Positions 56,008 through 62,980 of a DNA stretch of 64,000 bases are shown in pieces. The DNA is from Escherichia coli. Its GTDB lineage: Bacteria; Pseudomonadota; Gammaproteobacteria; Enterobacterales; Enterobacteriaceae. Positions within the stretch are counted from its first letter, which is position 1; every line of letters starts with the position of its first letter. The translations under genes were made by a program, and so were the position numbers. The notes under the pieces are model-generated. The model saw only the letters and a list, made by a program, of their open reading frames with translations, was not told the DNA's origin and did not search any database. The DNA lies in assembly GCF_044324785.1 (NCBI RefSeq), contig NZ_CP172127.1. One strand, given 5' to 3'.

Positions 56008-56661
56008 TTATCGCAGTTTGTTGTAATTTTCTGACCACTGCGCCATATCCAGAACAGAACTATCAGCAGGAACATCCTGGAGATCGTGCGTTACCTGAAC
56101 GACGGGGATCGCCAGGGCGCGAACTTCGCTAAATACCCACTGGCGAAAATTATCGCGCAGAGCTACATCAAGACGGCTGAATGGCTCATCCAGTAGCAAC
56201 GCTTTTGGCTGAGCGAGAAGAGCGCGAAGCAGAGCAACGCGCGCTCGCTGACCACCGGACAGAGTAGCAGGATCCTGATGGAACATACCGCCAAGCCCCG
56301 CACGCTCCAGCGCATCATTTACCGCATCGCGCCTTGCAATACCTTTGAGTGCCGCTGGCAGAGCCAGCAGTAAATTTTGCCCGACGCTGAACTGGTCAAA
56401 TAACAGTGCATCCTGGAAAAGAATGCCAATCTGACGCTCTGCGGTGGGTAGCATGTCAATCCGTTGCTCATTGAGCCATAGCTCACCTGTACAAGAAAAC
56501 TGTCCGGCCAGCGCACCAATCATCCATGAAAACAGAGTGGATTTTCCACAGCCAGACGGCCCCATTAACGTGACAATGTCACATTTATCCACCGTAAAGT
56601 TAACGTTTGTCAGCAAGCAGCTTTCTGGTAAACGTAGCGAAACATTTTTCACGCAGAGCAT
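56008..56661 (-). CDS. ynjD: ABC transporter ATP-binding protein YnjD
   Basis: 217 aa from ATG 56661; Walker A GPSGCGKST and ABC signature LSGGQRAR. Confidence 0.85.
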   Translation of the reverse strand: MLCVKNVSLRLPESCLLTNVNFTVDKCDIVTLMGPSGCGKSTLFSWMIGALAGQFSCTGELWLNEQRIDMLPTAERQIGILFQDALLFDQFSVGQNLLLALPAALKGIARRDAVNDALERAGLGGMFHQDPATLSGGQRARVALLRALLAQPKALLLDEPFSRLDVALRDNFRQWVFSEVRALAIPVVQVTHDLQDVPADSSVLDMAQWSENYNKLR

Positions 56662-58196
56662 TAGCGGAGTCCTTGTCTGACATAACCTACCCATTTTGCG
56701 ACTAACGCGGTCAGGGCAAAAATAATAAGCGGTAATAGCAGTTGCCATAAAGCCTGGGCGGCGAGAATACCGTTGCTGCCGCCGCTGCTTAATGCCACCG
56801 CTTCAGTGGTGAGCGTCGGAAAACGCCCCGCGCCCAGCCACAGCGTCGGCATATACTGTGCAATACTGACTGAAAATCCCACCGCGAAGGCAATCAGCGT
56901 AGGGCGTAGCATAAGCGGACATTTCACGTAAAAGAAGATTTTGGACTGCGACCAGCCCAGTGTTTGCGCAATCAAAATTAACCGTGAATCAATGCGCTGC
57001 CAGGCGGGTTGCAGGATAAACAGCATCCACGGCATTACCCACAGCAGATGCCCCCAGACCACCGCCGTCCAGCTTCCATCCAGGTTTAGCCATAGAGCCA
57101 GCGTGTACTGGCCCGCCACCAGTGGCAGAGCGGGTAATAAAATGGGCAACCATAGCCACAACTGGCGACGCTGTGGCCCCCATTCCAGCCACAGCAGTAA
57201 CAGGAGCAAAGCGATGAATGTCGCCACCAGCCCCATTGTCAGGCTGTTGATGAGCGCTTCACTATTGATCGTCGACTGATCCGCGAGGATCGCCAGCAGA
57301 ACCACACACAGCACACCGGTCAAGGGTAAAAAACTCGCCAGCGTATTGCCTGGCAATAAAGACGTGGCAGGCTTACGAACGCCATCTACGCGGGGAATAT
57401 TACGCCGCCAGCCACGCCATAGCAGATAGCCCAGCAAAACGTAGGCGGCGAGTAACAGCATCAGCAGCAGGCTGGCGAGTGCGCCTTTCGCTTGTTGATC
57501 GGCGTCGCCCTGAGTTAACCACTGCCAGCTAATTACTGCCAGCGTCGGTGGATTACCTGGCCCAAGAATAATCGCCACATCCACGACCGACAGCGACCAG
57601 GCAACAATCGCCAGCATCGCCATTGCTAATGCAGGCGCGACGGAGGGCAACAGCAGCCAGTTCAGGCATTGCCAGCGGCTGTAGCCCAGCGAATCCAGCA
57701 CAATGACCTGCTGCAATAGCCGTTTTTCGCTCAATACTGCCGCTAAGATCCACAGCAGAAATGCGCTTTCTTTCACCGCCAGGGTGAGGCCCAGCCCAAT
57801 ACCCAATTTATCCATTGGCGGAGTGAAATATGGGAAATAGTCATAAAGCAGCCCTCCGTCAGCAAAGAGCAGAAGGGTGCTGGTGGCAAAAGCCACATGG
57901 GGAATGGCGAGCAGCCACGGCAGACGGGCGCACATACGCTGCCATTTCGGCCCAGGCCACAGCGCCACAATCACCAGCAGGGCAATCAACAACGCCCCGA
58001 CCGCCGCGATGGTTGTCGACACCAGCGTTGCCAGTAATGCCTGCGGTAACTGTGGATCGGCAAATAACGTCTGCCAGTGTGTCAACGACAAAGCAGGCGA
58101 TATCAGCGTGAGAGCTGCCGGGATCAGCGGTGCATAAATCACCGCCACCATCGCCCACAGCAAAAAGATTAATGCGTACCGTAACGGTGTAGCCAT
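56661..58196 (-). CDS. ynjC: ABC transporter permease YnjC (fused double permease)
   Basis: 511 aa from ATG 58196; about 12 TM segments; stop overlaps the ynjD start by 1 nt. Confidence 0.85.
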   Translation of the reverse strand: MATPLRYALIFLLWAMVAVIYAPLIPAALTLISPALSLTHWQTLFADPQLPQALLATLVSTTIAAVGALLIALLVIVALWPGPKWQRMCARLPWLLAIPHVAFATSTLLLFADGGLLYDYFPYFTPPMDKLGIGLGLTLAVKESAFLLWILAAVLSEKRLLQQVIVLDSLGYSRWQCLNWLLLPSVAPALAMAMLAIVAWSLSVVDVAIILGPGNPPTLAVISWQWLTQGDADQQAKGALASLLLMLLLAAYVLLGYLLWRGWRRNIPRVDGVRKPATSLLPGNTLASFLPLTGVLCVVLLAILADQSTINSEALINSLTMGLVATFIALLLLLLWLEWGPQRRQLWLWLPILLPALPLVAGQYTLALWLNLDGSWTAVVWGHLLWVMPWMLFILQPAWQRIDSRLILIAQTLGWSQSKIFFYVKCPLMLRPTLIAFAVGFSVSIAQYMPTLWLGAGRFPTLTTEAVALSSGGSNGILAAQALWQLLLPLIIFALTALVAKWVGYVRQGLR

Positions 58197-59338
58197 TCTT
58201 GTTCCAGCGCATTTACCCAACCTGCGTGCGGTTCAGCCAGTACCGGCGGCAGATCTTGCGGCATTCTTGATTGCAATGTTTCGCGCTGCCCATCAGGCAG
58301 TTTTTGCGGATCGAGAACAGAAGGATCGCCCCAGACAGCGGGATCTGCTTTACGCAATTGCGCATCGGGTGAGAGCAAGAAATTGGCAACTACCTTCGCC
58401 GCAGCACTGGCATTCGCGTTGGCAGGAATGGTGACGAAATGCACGTTGCCAATCATCCCCTCGCGAAAGCCAAAACTGTAACTGCTTGCAGGCAAATCGC
58501 CGCTGGCGATTTTTTGCTGCGCATGCGCGGGGTTAAAGGTCAGCGACAGGCGCAATGTGCCGGCTTTCAGCAGAGCATCCATCCGCGCGGGCGAAGGCGG
58601 GAAATCCTTTCCTTCGCGCCATAAATACGGATGCAGCGTATCAAGATATTGCCACAAGGGCGCAGTGACACGGGCGAAAGTCGCATCGTCCGGCGCTTCT
58701 TTTAATGCTGTGGGATCTGGCGTTAGCATAATCAGCAACTGTTCAAGAAACGCCGTGCCGGTAAAGTCCGGTGGGCGCGGATAGGTAACCGTGCCGGGAT
58801 TGGCTTTAGCAAACTCCAGTAAGGCTTGCGGCGTTTGTGGTGGCTGTGGCGTAACATCGCGGCGGGCGATAAATGTCAGTTGTGCGCCACCCCAGGGCGA
58901 TTCAGCCCCTTCTGTAGGCACTGAAAAATCTTCCCGCACCGGCAGCTGTGTGTCGACATAGCGCCAGTTGGGCAGAGTCTCCGCCCAGCCCGTTTGTAAT
59001 AAATTGGCCTCTTTTAAGGTGCGGAAGTTTTCGCCGTTCACCCAGAGCAGATCCACCGAGCCGCCCGTTTTACGTCCGGCAGCAGCTTCGGTCTGAATGC
59101 GCTTCACCGCGTCTGCGGCATCCGCGAGACGAACAATCTTCAGGTTTATAGCGTAATGGGTTTTCATCTCGCCGCTAACCCAGTCGAGATAGCGGTTAAT
59201 TGCGGTATCGCCGCCCCAGGCGTTAAACCATACGGTTTGTCCTTTGGCCTCATTTTTTATTTCCTGCCAGTCACTGGCATGTGTTGCCAAAGAAAACAGC
59301 GATAACAATCCCAGCAACCACCCACAATGGCGCATCAT
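58169..59338 (-). CDS. ynjB: ABC transporter periplasmic substrate-binding protein YnjB
   Basis: About 388 aa; signal peptide MMRHCGWLLGLLSLFSLATHA; 3' end overlaps the ynjC start by 28 nt. Confidence 0.85.
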   Translation of the reverse strand: MMRHCGWLLGLLSLFSLATHASDWQEIKNEAKGQTVWFNAWGGDTAINRYLDWVSGEMKTHYAINLKIVRLADAADAVKRIQTEAAAGRKTGGSVDLLWVNGENFRTLKEANLLQTGWAETLPNWRYVDTQLPVREDFSVPTEGAESPWGGAQLTFIARRDVTPQPPQTPQALLEFAKANPGTVTYPRPPDFTGTAFLEQLLIMLTPDPTALKEAPDDATFARVTAPLWQYLDTLHPYLWREGKDFPPSPARMDALLKAGTLRLSLTFNPAHAQQKIASGDLPASSYSFGFREGMIGNVHFVTIPANANASAAAKVVANFLLSPDAQLRKADPAVWGDPSVLDPQKLPDGQRETLQSRMPQDLPPVLAEPHAGWVNALEQEWLHRYGTH

Positions 59339-59344
59339 CTCTCC

Positions 59345-59893
59345 TTAAGAACGTTTTTCAGGAATACGGCACAGCCCCTGAGCGGGAATGTCCATGGCAG
59401 AATTAAAACGAGCCGACAGGTTTTGCAGGCCGATCAATGCCGTCAGTTCGGTGAGCGCCTGGGCGTCAAAATGCGCAGCCAGTCGGGTACGCAGGGCATC
59501 ATCGACCGTTGGCGGCGTTACGCTTGCGGCTTCGGCGTACTCCAGCGCCAGCCGTTCTTCATCGCTAAAGAGCGGGCTTTGCCGCCAGTCAGCCACTGCC
59601 AGCAGTTTATCGGTGCTGCCAGTGCGCTCGGCGACTTTCATACTGGTGATATCCACGCAAAACTCACACAGACACATTTGCGCAATGCGCGCGCTGACAA
59701 GCGATCGCACTACCGGATCCAGCGGTGAGCGTTTGCGCTCCAGCCAGCCGACAAACATCGACACCAGATAAAAGATAAACGGGATCCGCCCCCACCAGCG
59801 AATCGGGCTTAGCACCTCGCCGTAATGGCGACGATGCAGCCACGCCTGCGGACGTAAAATGAAAGGAATTTTGCTAAGCGGCGGTAAACCCAT
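59345..59893 (-). CDS. ynjA: carboxymuconolactone-decarboxylase/AhpD-like protein YnjA
   Basis: 182-aa ORF with Cys pair CLCEFC characteristic of AhpD-like proteins. Confidence 0.8.
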   Translation of the reverse strand: MGLPPLSKIPFILRPQAWLHRRHYGEVLSPIRWWGRIPFIFYLVSMFVGWLERKRSPLDPVVRSLVSARIAQMCLCEFCVDITSMKVAERTGSTDKLLAVADWRQSPLFSDEERLALEYAEAASVTPPTVDDALRTRLAAHFDAQALTELTALIGLQNLSARFNSAMDIPAQGLCRIPEKRS

Positions 59894-60600
59894 CAGGCAT
59901 TCCTCTTCTGGCGCTCAAGCCATATTTTCTTCGCCATAAAAATCACCACGGTCAGGGCAAACAGAATAAACAGTCCGGTGACAAACCAGAAAGTACCGCC
60001 TGTTAACATGCTGCCCGCCCAGGAATAAACAATAGTCGCCGGTAACTGACCAAGCCCGGTGGCGATAAAAAACGAGCGAAAACGTATTGAAGTCAAACCG
60101 GCAGCATAGCTGATTGGATCGAAAGGGACAAAAGGCAATAACCGACATACCAGGATGGTGTGTTTGCCGTAGCGAGTGAAAAAGCCGTCCATACTCTCAA
60201 GCACGGTCTTGCCGGTTAATTTTTCCACCACTTCGCGGCCCATCACTCTGGCGATAAAAAAGCACAGCGCCGCGCCGGCCATCGAACTGGTCCACGACAG
60301 CAAGCCACCCCAGAACGCGCCAAACAGCGACGCATTGGCAAAGGTGATCAAAAACGCAGGTAGCGGTGCAGCAATGGCCTGTAAAATCATCAACAAGAAC
60401 GATACAACTGCCGCTAGTGCGCCGTAAGACTGAATAAAGCGTTCTATACCCTGTTGGTCCACGGCGGCAAACGCCGTAACGCTGCGATTGATAAACTCAT
60501 GGACGCCGGGAAGCAGCGCCCATGCCAGCAGCATAGCGAACAACAGGATGATGAGGGTTATACGGTAGTACCAGATTTTTCGCGATTGCATCTTCATCAT
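59893..60600 (-). CDS. ydjZ: TVP38/TMEM64 (DedA-related) membrane protein YdjZ
   Basis: 235-aa multi-TM ORF; stop overlaps the ynjA start (ATGA). Confidence 0.8.
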   Translation of the reverse strand: MMKMQSRKIWYYRITLIILLFAMLLAWALLPGVHEFINRSVTAFAAVDQQGIERFIQSYGALAAVVSFLLMILQAIAAPLPAFLITFANASLFGAFWGGLLSWTSSMAGAALCFFIARVMGREVVEKLTGKTVLESMDGFFTRYGKHTILVCRLLPFVPFDPISYAAGLTSIRFRSFFIATGLGQLPATIVYSWAGSMLTGGTFWFVTGLFILFALTVVIFMAKKIWLERQKRNA

Positions 60601-60614
60601 CCTTTATCCTGGCT

Positions 60615-61292
60615 TTATTCGGTGATTTTAAAGGTAACCGTTGCCAGCGTGTTATCCGCCGGGAGAACCGAGGCATTGCCTTTGAATTTCACTTCGCCGC
60701 GTTTTTCCACCGCACCATAAGTGTATGTTGCATTGCTGACGATGCCGACCGGGCAGCTATCCAGACACACCAGGCAACCCGTTTTCTTCTCTTCTGCTGC
60801 CGTTAAATTACCGCCAAAGCGCATGTCCAGTTTCTTGCCATTACTGTCAACAATCACTTCATCGAAGGAATACGCTTTTGCCGCCCCTTGCCAGTTGACC
60901 GAAATATCCAGTTTGCTGCCTGTGACATGAGTCGTTTCTTTATTATCCATCGTCATGTTTTCGCCCGGCGTACCACCTGCCTCTTTCAGGGCTTCATAAA
61001 ATGCTTTCGGGGTCGCATAACCCATAAACAGCGATTTATGTCCGTTGGAGCCATCTTTAAACACAATACCGTGACGAGTGTCGTCGGTGAGGAAACGACC
61101 ATTAATTTGCACCAGCATGGTTACCGTATGGTTATTAGCATCGACACGCAGCGGTTGGCTGTTCGAAAGTCCGTCGTATTCCACTTTTGCCGCCGCATTC
61201 TCTTGTTGATCGCAGCCGCTAAGCCCAGCAACAGCCAGTAAACAGAGTGCAGCCAGTCCTTTTTTCCATGACACTGAATAATGTTGCAACAT
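60615..61292 (-). CDS. ydjY: secreted/lipoprotein-like protein YdjY
   Basis: 225 aa from ATG 61292 (MLQHYSVSWKKGLAALCLLAVAGLSGC, lipobox LSGC); track ORF extended by 54 codons. Confidence 0.8.
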   Translation of the reverse strand: MLQHYSVSWKKGLAALCLLAVAGLSGCDQQENAAAKVEYDGLSNSQPLRVDANNHTVTMLVQINGRFLTDDTRHGIVFKDGSNGHKSLFMGYATPKAFYEALKEAGGTPGENMTMDNKETTHVTGSKLDISVNWQGAAKAYSFDEVIVDSNGKKLDMRFGGNLTAAEEKKTGCLVCLDSCPVGIVSNATYTYGAVEKRGEVKFKGNASVLPADNTLATVTFKITE

Positions 61293-61296
61293 CGTT

Positions 61297-62007
61297 CTAT
61301 CCTTCATTTTTTGGGTGAGAAAGTGGGCTGCGGCGAGAAGCAGACAGATCCACATGTTTGTGTCGGGCGTAGAGTTTTGCGAGCTGGACGAGAATAAACA
61401 GCGCCAGGCCCGCCAGACAGAGTTGTAAAATAAAGCGCAGCGTAATGCCTTCATTGGCGAGATCGCTTGCCATCACGGTATAAATAACAATACCGGGCAG
61501 GGTCGTGAGTGCCGAAATAAGGGTATAAGGCCAGAAGGCGATTGTGGTTAATCCGTAAGCGTAATTTTGAATATTGTAAGGAAACAACGGGATTAAGCGG
61601 GTCAGAATAAGAAAATCAATACCGTTACGCGCAATGCCTTTTTCAATGGCCTGAAAGGTATGGCTATGGCCAACGTATTTCAGCAGTAAATCACGTCCCA
61701 GCCAGCGCGCCAGCAGGAATGAGCACGAGGAGGCCAGCGTGGCGGCAATTAATGATAGTAGTGTCCCTAAGAGCGGGCCAAAAACTATTCCTCCAGCGAT
61801 CACCAGTATGCTTCCTGGTAACAGAAAGAGGGTGGCAATGATGAATAACAGAATATAGAGGCTATAACCGAACAATCCGCTCTGGCGAATGAGTGTCAGT
61901 AAGTGAGGTAAATCGGTGAGCAGCTCGAATAAACCGAAAGCGTGGAAAGCGTAAATGACCAGCGCAAAAATAAGACAGGCAAACAGAAATTTACGCTCAG
62001 CGTTCAT
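61297..62007 (-). CDS. ydjX: TVP38/TMEM64 (DedA-related) membrane protein YdjX
   Basis: 236 aa from ATG 62007 (MNAERKFLFACLIFALV); paralogous in architecture to ydjZ. Confidence 0.8.
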   Translation of the reverse strand: MNAERKFLFACLIFALVIYAFHAFGLFELLTDLPHLLTLIRQSGLFGYSLYILLFIIATLFLLPGSILVIAGGIVFGPLLGTLLSLIAATLASSCSFLLARWLGRDLLLKYVGHSHTFQAIEKGIARNGIDFLILTRLIPLFPYNIQNYAYGLTTIAFWPYTLISALTTLPGIVIYTVMASDLANEGITLRFILQLCLAGLALFILVQLAKLYARHKHVDLSASRRSPLSHPKNEG

Positions 62008-62173
62008 TGTGGAGTTTCCTATATCAAACTTGATAATAGAGAAGTGGTCAGACAACTAAAAACGCAGTGACGGTATAACAAAGGGCGGCAGGCAACAAAT
62101 CATTACTGACAGTTTGTTGATTTTTCTCAAGGTTAATTCTCCTGACCCAGTTTGAGCCAGGAGAACAGCTAAA

Positions 62174-62980
62174 TTAGCGGCGGAAGGTCGCCCAGACGGG
62201 GGCGTGATCGGACGGTTTTTCCATGCTGCGGATTTCATAGTCGATGCCGGTTTCTACGCAACATTCTGCCAGCGGTTGGCTGGCGAGAAGCAGGTCGATA
62301 CGCAGACCGCGGTTATCGTCAAAACCTTTTGAGCGGTAATCAAACCATGAGAAACGATCGGCTGTTTGCGGATTCGCATGGCGGAAGGTATCGACCAACC
62401 CCCAGCTCATCAGTCTCTCCATCCATTCGCGTTCTTCAGGAAGGAAAGAGCATTTTCCGGTACGCAGCCAGCGCTTACGGTTCTCTTCGCCAATGCCAAT
62501 ATCCAGGTCGCCAGGACTGATATTCATATCGCCCATAATCAGCACCGGATTTTCACGCTTGAGTTCGGTTTCCAGGTAGTTTTGCAGATTCTGATAAAAC
62601 TGCGCCTTTGCCGGGAATTTTATCGGATGGTCGCGGCTTTCACCCTGCGGGAAGTAACCGTTGATCACGGTAACATTGCCCAGCGTCGAGGGGATTTCAG
62701 CCATAATAATTCGCCGTTGCGCCTCTTCGTCATCACCCGGAAAACCGCGACGCACGGCAATCGGCGTCTCTTTGGTCAGCAGCGCCACGCCATAATGGCC
62801 TTTCTGCCCGTGATAAAACACGTTGTAGCCGAGCTTCGCCACCTCTTCGAGCGGAAACATATCGTCATGAACTTTTGTCTCCTGCAGGCCAATCACATCC
62901 GGTTGGTGCTTTTCGACGATGGCTTCAAGCTGGTGAGGTCTGGCGCGCAGGCCGTTGATATTAAAAGAGACAAATTTCAT
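62174..62980 (-). CDS. xthA: exodeoxyribonuclease III
   Basis: 268 aa from ATG 62980 ([18 protein letters not shown]); AP-endonuclease fold. Confidence 0.9.

Follow-up and report, generated by a model that had tools for sequence, protein, structure and literature searches.

The ydjXYZ-ynjABCD operon and ynjE of Escherichia coli as the probable enterobacterial version of a cross-phylum modular envelope system, with a possible role in chalcogen traffic

The ydjXYZ-ynjABCD genes of Escherichia coli, together with ynjE and probably ynjF, in all likelihood constitute a coherent system, the enterobacterial version of a modular envelope system that recurs across phyla. Here, we describe an analysis of these genes in a 64,000-nucleotide (nt) stretch of E. 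coli DNA (assembly GCF_044324785.1, contig NZ_CP172127.1), referred to below as the window, in which the operon under study occupies positions 56008-62007. The genes and their co-regulation have already been published as an uncharacterised transcription unit, and as an operon ydjXYZ-ynjABCD will not surprise a specialist; the new part is the linkage, across phyla, of the genes encoding YdjY and proteins with a VTT domain. Three independent lines converge: the gene linkage across phyla, the co-expression of the operon with yedEF and yjiLM, and the topology of the encoded proteins. On balance, the system probably traffics a chalcogen, either sulfur or selenium; that this chalcogen is specifically selenium is a tentative suggestion.

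An alignment of YdjY was used to scan one genome per species (100,044 species), which gave about 120 matches. The best 80 loci were analysed with tblastn, using the E. coli proteins as queries, and by clustering of all open reading frames (ORFs), and the counts given here refer to the 73 of these best 80 loci that are non-enterobacterial. An additional metagenome scan for YdjY returned mostly E. coli contigs and added about 14 diverged loci. YdjY homologues at 45-60% identity were found in distant anaerobes, and the taxa bearing YdjY loci include Escherichia, Citrobacter, Finegoldia, Peptostreptococcus, Gemella, Catonella, Clostridium, Sulfurospirillum, Campylobacter concisus, Desulfarculus and Syntrophobacterales. 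A VTT gene stands beside YdjY in 65 of the 73 loci, with YdjZ orthologues at 49-58% identity in, among others, Firmicutes and Campylobacterota. Almost as a rule (66/73) YdjY is also accompanied by a small polytopic membrane domain (small-TM) of about 125-150 amino acids (aa) without an NCBIfam match, which is either free (e.g. L058:1985-2362 and L054:10735-11157) or forms the N-terminus of a long YdjZ-type protein of 390-410 aa (e.g. L063:10764-11951). A HdrD/GlpC-like Fe-S/CCG protein without a signal peptide is present in 25 loci, and in 11 of them it forms the N-terminal part of a fusion with the VTT domain. Less frequent companions are a set comprising ArsS, TIGR04282, TIGR04283 and a kinase, with scores above cutoff (15 loci), an extracytoplasmic rhodanese (10 loci), YnjB with two permeases and an ATPase at 32-37% identity (10 loci), and a YnjF-like CDP-alcohol phosphatidyltransferase (6 loci), which adjoins YnjBCD in five Firmicutes loci (L031, L042, L047, L054 and L061). 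One Finegoldia metagenome-assembled genome (MAG) carries, 7-10 kb 5' of YdjY and separated from it by an Opp-type ABC operon, genes for an ArsA ATPase, an Acr3-type SBF carrier and an ArsC of the low-molecular-weight phosphatase type (L003:1-2713); this was the sole arsenic-resistance context seen.

The Firmicutes order parallels that of E. coli, and in L054 it reads YdjY, small-TM, VTT, VTT, HdrD, YnjF, YnjB, permease, permease, ATPase, with the HdrD-like gene occupying the slot that ynjA fills in E. coli. A gammaproteobacterial contig (L169) contains a contiguous VTT-YdjY-VTT-YnjA-rhodanese array, equivalent to ydjX-ydjY-ydjZ-ynjA-rhodanese, without ABC genes, and another proteobacterial locus (L170) has VTT-YdjY-VTT only. 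Edwardsiella possesses overlapping, translationally coupled genes for YnjA and YnjF, as well as YnjE and a single VTT gene; YdjY and the ABC genes are missing. Because the proteobacterial loci show this modularity, we regard ydjXYZ as the core, ynjA and ynjE as the next layer, and ynjBCD and ynjF as accessories. The ABC importer thus represents an extra that some loci include, not the centre of the system. The gene set includes ynjE and probably also the convergent ynjF. An earlier sequence-only reading of the window had regarded these genes as compatible with the uptake or processing of a sulfur-containing or redox-active substrate, and the idea of a coherent system of this kind is strengthened by the co-localisation across phyla and by the contiguous array in L169. 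Within E. coli, the 6-kb region was found in 5424 of 5426 complete genomes, most of which match it at 95-99% identity, and at least 80% of it is present in 5312; the locus is part of the core E. coli chromosome. The only matches labelled as plasmids were chromosome-sized records, and an origin from a mobile element or plasmid was ruled out. The gene arrangement is not due to chance, since 5312 of the 5426 genomes hold at least 80% of the region and the set recurs in other phyla.

YdjY matches NF040466/PF27149 at 146 bits (cutoff 50), possesses the lipobox LSGC, and contains an invariant C173-x2-C176-x3-C180 motif as well as an invariant R73/H74 pair. The CxxCxxxC motif is invariant in 81 of 81 YdjY members, every one of which has an export signal, and in none of these 81 is a cysteine of YdjY replaced by selenocysteine. 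Searches revealed no close solved fold for YdjY. The UniProt label of 4Fe-4S ferredoxin was rejected, as the CxxCxxCxxxCP cluster motif and ferredoxin fold that it calls for were not found. In a Foldseek search, AFDB entries of 328 and 495 aa that match YdjY are described as rhodanese or sulfurtransferase, which points to fusions of the two domains. In a deltaproteobacterial MAG, one of two tandem YdjY paralogues (L049:9110-9856, plus strand) bears a twin-arginine-like signal, SRRHFLRSLL, in place of a Sec/lipoprotein signal, a hint that export of this copy may take place in the folded state, together with a cofactor.

The two membrane proteins that flank YdjY in E. coli, YdjX and YdjZ, are 28% identical to each other and match Pfam VTT_dom (PF09335) at E values of 2.3e-26 and 1.3e-24, respectively. 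Against the UptA/DedA models, which describe the COG0586 flippases of undecaprenyl phosphate (UndP), they score 28.6 and 34.6 bits, under the cutoff of 250. Both are named E. coli members of COG0398, of which YdjZ is the representative; members of COG0398 are considered unlikely to be UndP flippases, are without the UndP-binding residues, and are sometimes fused to pyridine-nucleotide disulfide oxidoreductases (PMC10127716), a parallel to the fusions of HdrD-like and VTT domains seen in YdjY loci. YdjX and YdjZ share PF09335 with the wider COG0398 DedA/VTT group (bacterial TVP38/TMEM64, and the eukaryotic scramblases TMEM41B and VMP1); COG0398 members are without an assigned substrate. The family has been proposed to be tied to aerobic metabolism, whereas the YdjY/VTT pair is FNR-induced and occurs mainly in anaerobes. 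In the papers that we consulted, we did not find the obligate pairing of VTT proteins with a three-cysteine lipoprotein and a small-TM domain described.

In the cytoplasm, the partner of these proteins would be YnjA in E. coli and the HdrD-like protein in many other loci. YnjA matches the Pfam CMD family (E 5e-8), its relatives in the PDB are AhpD-like proteins, and its alignment contains the invariant CxxC motif C76-E-F-C79 (CEFC) and a further invariant cysteine, C175. Its score against the peroxidase-related family TIGR01926 (22.7 bits, cutoff 81.8) does not place it among AhpD alkylhydroperoxidases proper, and it differs from AhpD-like proteins both in lacking the AhpD histidine and in having the extra C-terminal cysteine. 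Distant homologues of YnjA lie in unrelated gene contexts. HdrD/DsrK-type CCG Fe-S reductases and AhpD-like CxxC proteins both reduce bonds of the S-S type, and here they fill the same cytoplasmic slot. The Hdr-like protein of YdjY loci departs from the Hdr/Dsr complexes in its fusion to a VTT membrane domain, which to our knowledge is not a feature of any characterised complex of this kind.

YnjE carries a signal peptide and the active site CGTGWR (a CxxGxR loop), and corresponds to the solved structures 3IPO/2WLR (E about 1e-287). Its closest solved relatives outside E. coli are 'sulfurtransferase' chains of 441-460 aa, 6KTV, 6KVW and 6H98, matched at about 300 bits. We take these chains to be EanB, an enzyme of anaerobic ergothioneine synthesis whose reaction introduces sulfur at a C-H bond. 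This resemblance is a hint that the acceptor of sulfur or selenium from YnjE may be a small molecule and not cyanide. The protein is periplasmic and shows poor activity with thiosulfate and 3-mercaptopyruvate; its physiological substrate has been described as unclear, and thiosulfate-derived sulfane sulfur has been attributed to PspE (PMC10215317). A link between YnjE and molybdopterin synthesis is given as a citation in PMC3688515. Sulfuration of the molybdenum cofactor (Moco) by YnjE is not favoured as an explanation of the operon, because YnjE is periplasmic.

The domains and motifs of YnjBCD add up to a complete ABC importer of type I, in which both permease units are fused into one protein. 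YnjB has an N-terminal signal sequence and matches SBP_bac_8 (Pfam, E 3e-14) and PRK11622 (562 bits, cutoff 203). YnjC contains two BPD_transp_1 regions, at residues 346-502 (E 9e-7) and, in a diverged first half, at residues 96-257 (weak, E 1.1); matches to PhnU2 and PRK15050 span both halves, and those to PhnU2, ModB and CysT are all under the family cutoffs. YnjD possesses a Walker A motif (GPSGCGKS), a signature (LSGGQ) and a Walker B motif (LLLDEP), and gave 183 NCBIfam ABC ATPase matches. No PDB sequence relative of YnjB was found, its profile matches are weak and scattered over polyamine, iron, 2-aminoethylphosphonate (AEP) and maltose binders, and its Foldseek neighbours (TM 0.55-0.66), which include TbpA, PotD, FbpA and PhnS-like proteins, bind unrelated ligands. 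The search for YnjB homologues was saturated by enterobacterial orthologues. Three substrate labels were rejected: thiamine (ThiBPQ; ThiQ 125.5 bits against a cutoff of 245, and an E value of 0.22 between the YnjB profile and TbpA 2qry), sulfate/thiosulfate (CysPUWA; CysT 23.8 against 246 and CysA 104 against 502 bits), and molybdate (ModABC; ModB 24.3 against 183 and ModC 124 against 285 bits). YnjBCD share their part list and subfamily signals with importers of the ThiBPQ, FbpABC/AfuABC and PhnSTUV types, which also have a fused double permease. They miss every equivalog cutoff of these systems, are without a close solved binding protein and, unlike them, are embedded in, yet separable from, the YdjY/VTT module. 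For E. coli YnjF, NCBIfam matches to archaetidylinositol-phosphate synthase (62.8 bits, cutoff 180) and to PIP synthase are below cutoff; PF01066 is present in the Edwardsiella orthologue, which is 68% identical to it.

The expression of these genes has been described. The ydjXYZ-ynjABCD genes form one transcription unit that FNR activates directly, with an FNR site at -60.5, and ynjE is activated separately by FNR from its own FNR-dependent promoter (PMC3688515); for K-12, a site at -41.5 has been reported for ynjE. The published unit bears out the single operon that the sequence-only reading had proposed for ydjX to ynjD, and the statement of that reading that no substrate is established still holds: our literature search found no publication assigning one to the ydjXYZ-ynjABCD system. 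In the window, a near-consensus FNR-like box, TTGATTTTTCTCAA, lies 110 nt 5' of the ydjX ATG and is consistent with the published site at -60.5. A pattern search of the 66-nt spacer between ynjD and ynjE revealed no FNR box with two or fewer mismatches, despite the site reported for K-12. An independent-component analysis of E. coli transcriptomes defined an uncharacterised iModulon consisting of exactly ydjXYZ-ynjABCD, yedEF, yjiLM and ynjE, which is more active anaerobically, depends on FNR and ArcA, and for which its authors propose a role in molybdenum and selenium usage (PMC7888660). In arrays of O157, ydjY, ynjE and yjiM increase under oxygen limitation together with the FNR regulon, and ynjE, yedE and yedF drop jointly at entry into stationary phase. 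Overexpression of BaeR raises ynjABCD expression 1.4-1.6 fold, an effect that its authors judge to be indirect.

Selenium genes accompany YdjY in part of its range. Of the 73 loci, 4 carry SelD and 5 carry YedF: SelD is directly downstream of YdjY in L025, the order SelD-YedF-86-aa ORF-YdjY is found on one strand in L077, both genes lie within a few kb in L076 and L079, and YedF is present in L049 and L074. The order in L079 is YedF, SclA-like lyase, 84-aa ORF, SelD. A Syntrophus-like MAG contains contiguous genes for a double-cubane-cluster reductase of the E. coli YjiM family (NF040772, 435 bits), an SclA-like cysteine/selenocysteine lyase and YedF (L074:15923-18940), about 5 kb from a HdrD::VTT-YdjY-ArsS array, an arrangement that mirrors the membership of yjiLM, yedEF and the ydj/ynj genes in one iModulon. 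The YedF, double-cubane, rhodanese and YdjY/VTT genes clustered there thus belong to the families that are co-expressed in E. coli, so that two independent kinds of evidence agree. Four SelD genes in 1.11 Mb of flanking sequence compare with about 0.3 expected (P about 3e-4), a figure that overstates independence since the loci are related. In the window, 6.2 kb separate selD (47395-48444, plus strand; 619 bits to PRK00943) from the end of ynjE, and the distance to the start of ydjX is about 13.6 kb; between selD and ynjE are ynjF, nudG, ynjH, gdhA and two further long ORFs. This proximity is suggestive only. The SelD, YedF and SclA-like neighbours and the co-expression of yedEF make a case for selenium that is no weaker than the one for sulfur.

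We tentatively propose a thiol-based relay in which a reactive chalcogen, selenium being the most likely, is carried over the inner membrane and handed to the selenophosphate synthetase SelD. The firmest part of this proposal is the predicted topology, in which YdjY and the rhodaneses lie outside the cytoplasm, their Fe-S/CCG or CxxC partner lies inside it and the VTT proteins span the membrane in between; such a topology fits the capture of a thiol-reactive species outside the cell, its passage through the membrane and its reductive release inside. According to the literature, FNR turns on a single polycistronic mRNA under anaerobic conditions, and the overlapping stop and start codons would couple the translation of the later genes. 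A reactive chalcogen in the periplasm would be captured on the active-site cysteine of YnjE and the CxxCxxxC motif of YdjY, the most likely cargo being thiol-reactive selenium (selenite-derived selenotrisulfide, Se(0) or perselenide), and would cross the inner membrane through, or with the help of, YdjX and YdjZ. A cytoplasmic thiol/disulfide reductase partner would then release the reduced chalcogen for SelD, a role that might be played by the CxxC protein YnjA in Enterobacteria and elsewhere by the HdrD/DsrK-like Fe-S/CCG protein, which is often fused to VTT. DsrK-type CCG proteins reduce trisulfides, which offers an analogy for the proposed reductive release. YnjBCD may serve as an accessory ATP-driven importer for a related small solute, and YnjF would link this solute, or a carrier, to a phospholipid.

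Several observations weigh against the selenium relay. A hidden Markov model search of the window in all six frames found no small-TM domain, although this domain accompanies YdjY in most other loci. At the position of the AhpD catalytic histidine, four residues after the second cysteine, the YnjA alignment shows threonine, serine or asparagine; YnjA does match a YciW-related (seleno)protein family weakly (101 bits, cutoff 310), and many family names of this form mean merely that some members contain selenocysteine. The PDB, profile and Foldseek searches permit no inference about the ligand of YnjB. Selenium markers occur in only 6 of the 73 loci, all of them in Desulfobacterota, so that these are not independent events, and the ArsS-containing set is found in more loci (15). 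The cysteines in the periplasm may do no more than form disulfides. The current view of COG0398 DedA proteins is that they are phospholipid scramblases rather than solute channels (PMC10127716), and our literature search found no report of a selenium phenotype or of selenium binding for any of these genes. Finally, the ArsS set, YnjF and flippase-like genes point to a lipid or organo-metalloid product.

The same architecture could instead carry sulfur, through periplasmic uptake or processing of sulfane sulfur, polysulfide or thiosulfate, with YnjE and YdjY as persulfide carriers, YdjX and YdjZ providing passage, YnjA or the HdrD-like protein releasing sulfide, and anaerobic sulfur assimilation or the sulfuration of cofactors (Moco, Fe-S) as the purpose. 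For every part seen, the chemistry of sulfur and selenium is interchangeable, HdrD/CCG domains and CxxC proteins act on S-S bonds, YnjE is a rhodanese that was solved as a thiosulfate sulfurtransferase and has the cited link to molybdopterin synthesis, and YeeE, a paralogue of YedE, is a thiosulfate transporter. We nevertheless consider a sulfur cargo unlikely, though a serious rival: YnjE performs poorly with the two sulfur donors named above and PspE accounts for thiosulfate-derived sulfane sulfur (PMC10215317), a periplasmic YnjE cannot directly serve the cytoplasmic MoaD, and the module is accompanied by SelD, YedF (TIGR03527, 'selenium metabolism') and an SclA-like lyase, and not by genes of the cys, sox or dsr type. 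Of similar weight, unlikely but a serious rival, is a pathway for a membrane lipid or an organo-metalloid, yielding a product resembling an arsenosugar phospholipid or a seleno-sugar lipid. YnjBCD would import an alcohol or head-group precursor that YnjF attaches to a lipid, YdjX and YdjZ would act as scramblases that flip the product outward, and YdjY and YnjE would act on it in the outer leaflet; in other phyla the precursor would be made in situ by the radical-SAM enzyme ArsS, the TIGR04282 and TIGR04283 transferases and a choline-kinase-like kinase. Three clustered cysteines are a classical As(III) site. ArsS-pathway markers, to which NCBI gives the name arsenosugar biosynthesis, are present in 15 of the 73 loci (ArsS 448 bits, cutoff 300), and in addition L159 and L160 show the order TIGR04283-TIGR04282-ArsS-YdjY-YdjZ; YnjF-like genes flank YnjBCD in the five Firmicutes loci, translational coupling links ynjA to ynjF in Edwardsiella, 6 loci contain flippase-like TIGR00374 genes, and COG0398 DedA proteins resemble eukaryotic scramblases (PMC10127716). 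On the other side, a search of the window showed ArsS, both transferases and the kinase to be absent from E. coli, arsM, arsR and arsB do not recur in YdjY loci, the core YdjY-VTT pair is often without any lipid genes, and SelD and YedF would have no role unless the product contained selenium. The ArsS set, which adjoins YdjY/VTT in about 15 loci, does occur with selenium genes in two Desulfobacterota loci (L049 and L074).

It is far less likely that YnjBCD is an ordinary nutrient importer, for example for thiamine (after KEGG/JGI labels), polyamine, phosphonate or iron, that happens to lie beside unrelated membrane genes. Some YnjB orthologues bear the JGI label 'putative thiamine transport system substrate-binding protein', YnjD and YnjC have sub-threshold matches to ThiQ, PhnT2/PhnU2, CysA and ModB/C, and TbpA, PotD, FbpA and PhnS-like proteins are among the structural neighbours of YnjB. 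All of these matches are far under the curated cutoffs, E. coli already has ThiBPQ, and the re-association of YnjBCD with YdjY, VTT and YnjF in Firmicutes, at 32-37% identity, speaks against accidental adjacency. Least probable of all is a module for envelope stress or detoxification, which under anaerobic conditions would export or neutralise a toxic thiol-reactive compound, so that traffic would run out of the cell instead of into it. DedA proteins have been implicated in resistance to drugs, indium and selenite, a FtsX-type exporter accompanies the module in some Firmicutes loci, and BaeR mildly induces ynjABCD; the last effect is small and judged indirect, the binding protein YnjB is of the classical importer type, and regulation by FNR places the genes with the anaerobic respiratory regulon.

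No characterised system corresponds to the YdjY/VTT/rhodanese/reductase module. Those closest to it in function, YedE/YedF, TsuA/TsuB and ExtH/ExtI, are not homologous to it. YedE/YedF (a putative selenium transporter with the TusA-like YedF) and YeeE/YeeD (TsuA/TsuB) are likewise envelope chalcogen systems that consist of a membrane protein and a cysteine-bearing partner; yedEF is co-expressed with the operon, there is physical linkage between YedF and YdjY in 5 Desulfobacterota loci, and YedE is confined to selenium-using organisms (PMC5322559). There is no sequence relationship to either system, and the membrane parts described here are VTT/DedA proteins and an ABC importer. In contrast to YedE/YedF, the thiol parts YdjY and YnjE are exported, and the cytoplasmic partner is AhpD- or HdrD-like rather than TusA-like. 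ExtH and ExtI of Geobacter sulfurreducens, a rhodanese-like lipoprotein and a porin-like protein, have been implicated in the uptake and reduction of selenite (PMC8981825). Both ExtH and YnjE are extracytoplasmic and of the rhodanese type, but YnjE scores only 40 bits against the ExtH model (cutoff 200) and is not an orthologue; ExtI is an outer-membrane porin, and ExtHI is without YdjY, VTT or ABC parts.

How bacteria acquire trace selenium, beyond its leakage through sulfate and phosphate carriers, is a long-standing question, for which the selenium relay offers a candidate route. Reviews note that E. coli keeps selenite uptake routes that have not been identified (PMC8981825). The more ambitious idea, that YdjY, VTT, rhodanese and a CxxC or HdrD-like protein represent a new class of uptake machinery in which a thiol relay, possibly lipid-assisted via YnjF, brings trace selenium across the cytoplasmic membrane to SelD in reduced form, is a doubtful one. 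If it were correct, the specific system by which E. coli and many anaerobes acquire selenium, long missing, would have been identified, and bacterial COG0398 DedA proteins, of all bacterial proteins the closest to human TMEM41B and VMP1 (PMC10127716), would have a first physiological substrate. Should the cargo prove to be sulfur or a lipid-linked organo-metalloid, the module would still represent an uncharacterised pathway of the envelope, widely distributed among anaerobes of the gut and mouth. Taken together, the three lines of evidence make nine y-genes of the best-studied bacterium the subject of a specific, testable hypothesis, and the roles of YnjE and of the COG0398 DedA proteins become testable in E. 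coli.

Gene coordinates in the window (Table 1) were obtained by transferring the RefSeq annotation of the best E. coli match (strain N3, 99.1% identity). All nine ORFs, from ydjX to ynjF, are intact and begin with ATG. The junctions from ydjX to ynjD measure +4, +14, -1, +9, -28 and -1 nt, in agreement with the earlier description of seven minus-strand genes with gaps of 14 nt or less. Three start/stop overlaps had been noted as well and were recovered, except that the overlap of ydjZ with ynjA is 1 nt long, in cc-TGATG-gg, and is not an ATGA. The start of ynjC lies inside ynjB, giving the 28-nt overlap, and ynjC/ynjD share 1 nt in TAATG. Shine-Dalgarno-like motifs (AGGA/GAGG) precede six of the seven starts by 5-10 nt, with a weak one before ynjC. 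The domain content assigned from sequence (an ABC importer, an AhpD-like CxxC protein, two DedA/TVP38-like proteins and a lipoprotein) matches the domain searches, and the rhodanese gene ynjE, recognised by its CGTGWR motif and signal peptide, does lie directly downstream, across the 66-nt spacer. The longest ORFs for ydjY (60615-61454, 279 aa) and ynjD (56008-56748, 246 aa) extend beyond the annotated starts, and the long forms are used by some database entries, such as YdjY entries of 246-279 aa in AFDB; the annotated starts of ydjY and ynjD give tight junctions and a proper lipoprotein signal.

Table 1. Genes and candidate regulatory elements of the ydj/ynj region, in window coordinates
Feature	Position	Strand	Description
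ydjX	61297-62007	-	236 aa; polytopic membrane protein, VTT/DedA, COG0398 (TVP38/TMEM64) subfamily
ydjY	60615-61292	-	225 aa; exported lipoprotein, YdjY domain
ydjZ	59893-60600	-	235 aa; second VTT/DedA COG0398 membrane protein
ynjA	59345-59893	-	182 aa; AhpD/CMD fold, without signal peptide
ynjB	58169-59335	-	388 aa; predicted periplasmic substrate-binding protein of ABC importer, cluster-D type
ynjC	56661-58196	-	511 aa; fused double permease
ynjD	56008-56661	-	217 aa; ABC ATPase
ynjE	54634-55941	-	435 aa; periplasmic three-domain rhodanese
ynjF	54005-54625	+	membrane CDP-alcohol phosphatidyltransferase family (annotation); convergent with ynjE
FNR-like box TTGATTTTTCTCAA	62117-62130		xthA-ydjX spacer; 1 mismatch to TTGAT-N4-ATCAA (pattern search)
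sigma-70-like promoter	55955-55982	-	TTCAGA-16-TACAAT; 66-nt ynjD-ynjE spacer

A consensus scan of 54400-62400 yielded 22 terminator-like hairpins, compared with 9.8 expected from shuffled sequences, most of them on the minus strand and inside coding sequence; it gave no strong terminator candidate between ynjD and ynjE. A plus-strand GC hairpin followed by a T-run (CCGGTTGCTACCGG GTTTTTTGG, 54662-54675) is located within the 3' end of ynjE and could terminate ynjF, the stop codons of ynjF and ynjE being 8 nt apart. Farther along, ynjH (53273-53545, plus strand) and nudG (53511-53918, minus strand) are also convergent, and their coding regions share 35 nt.

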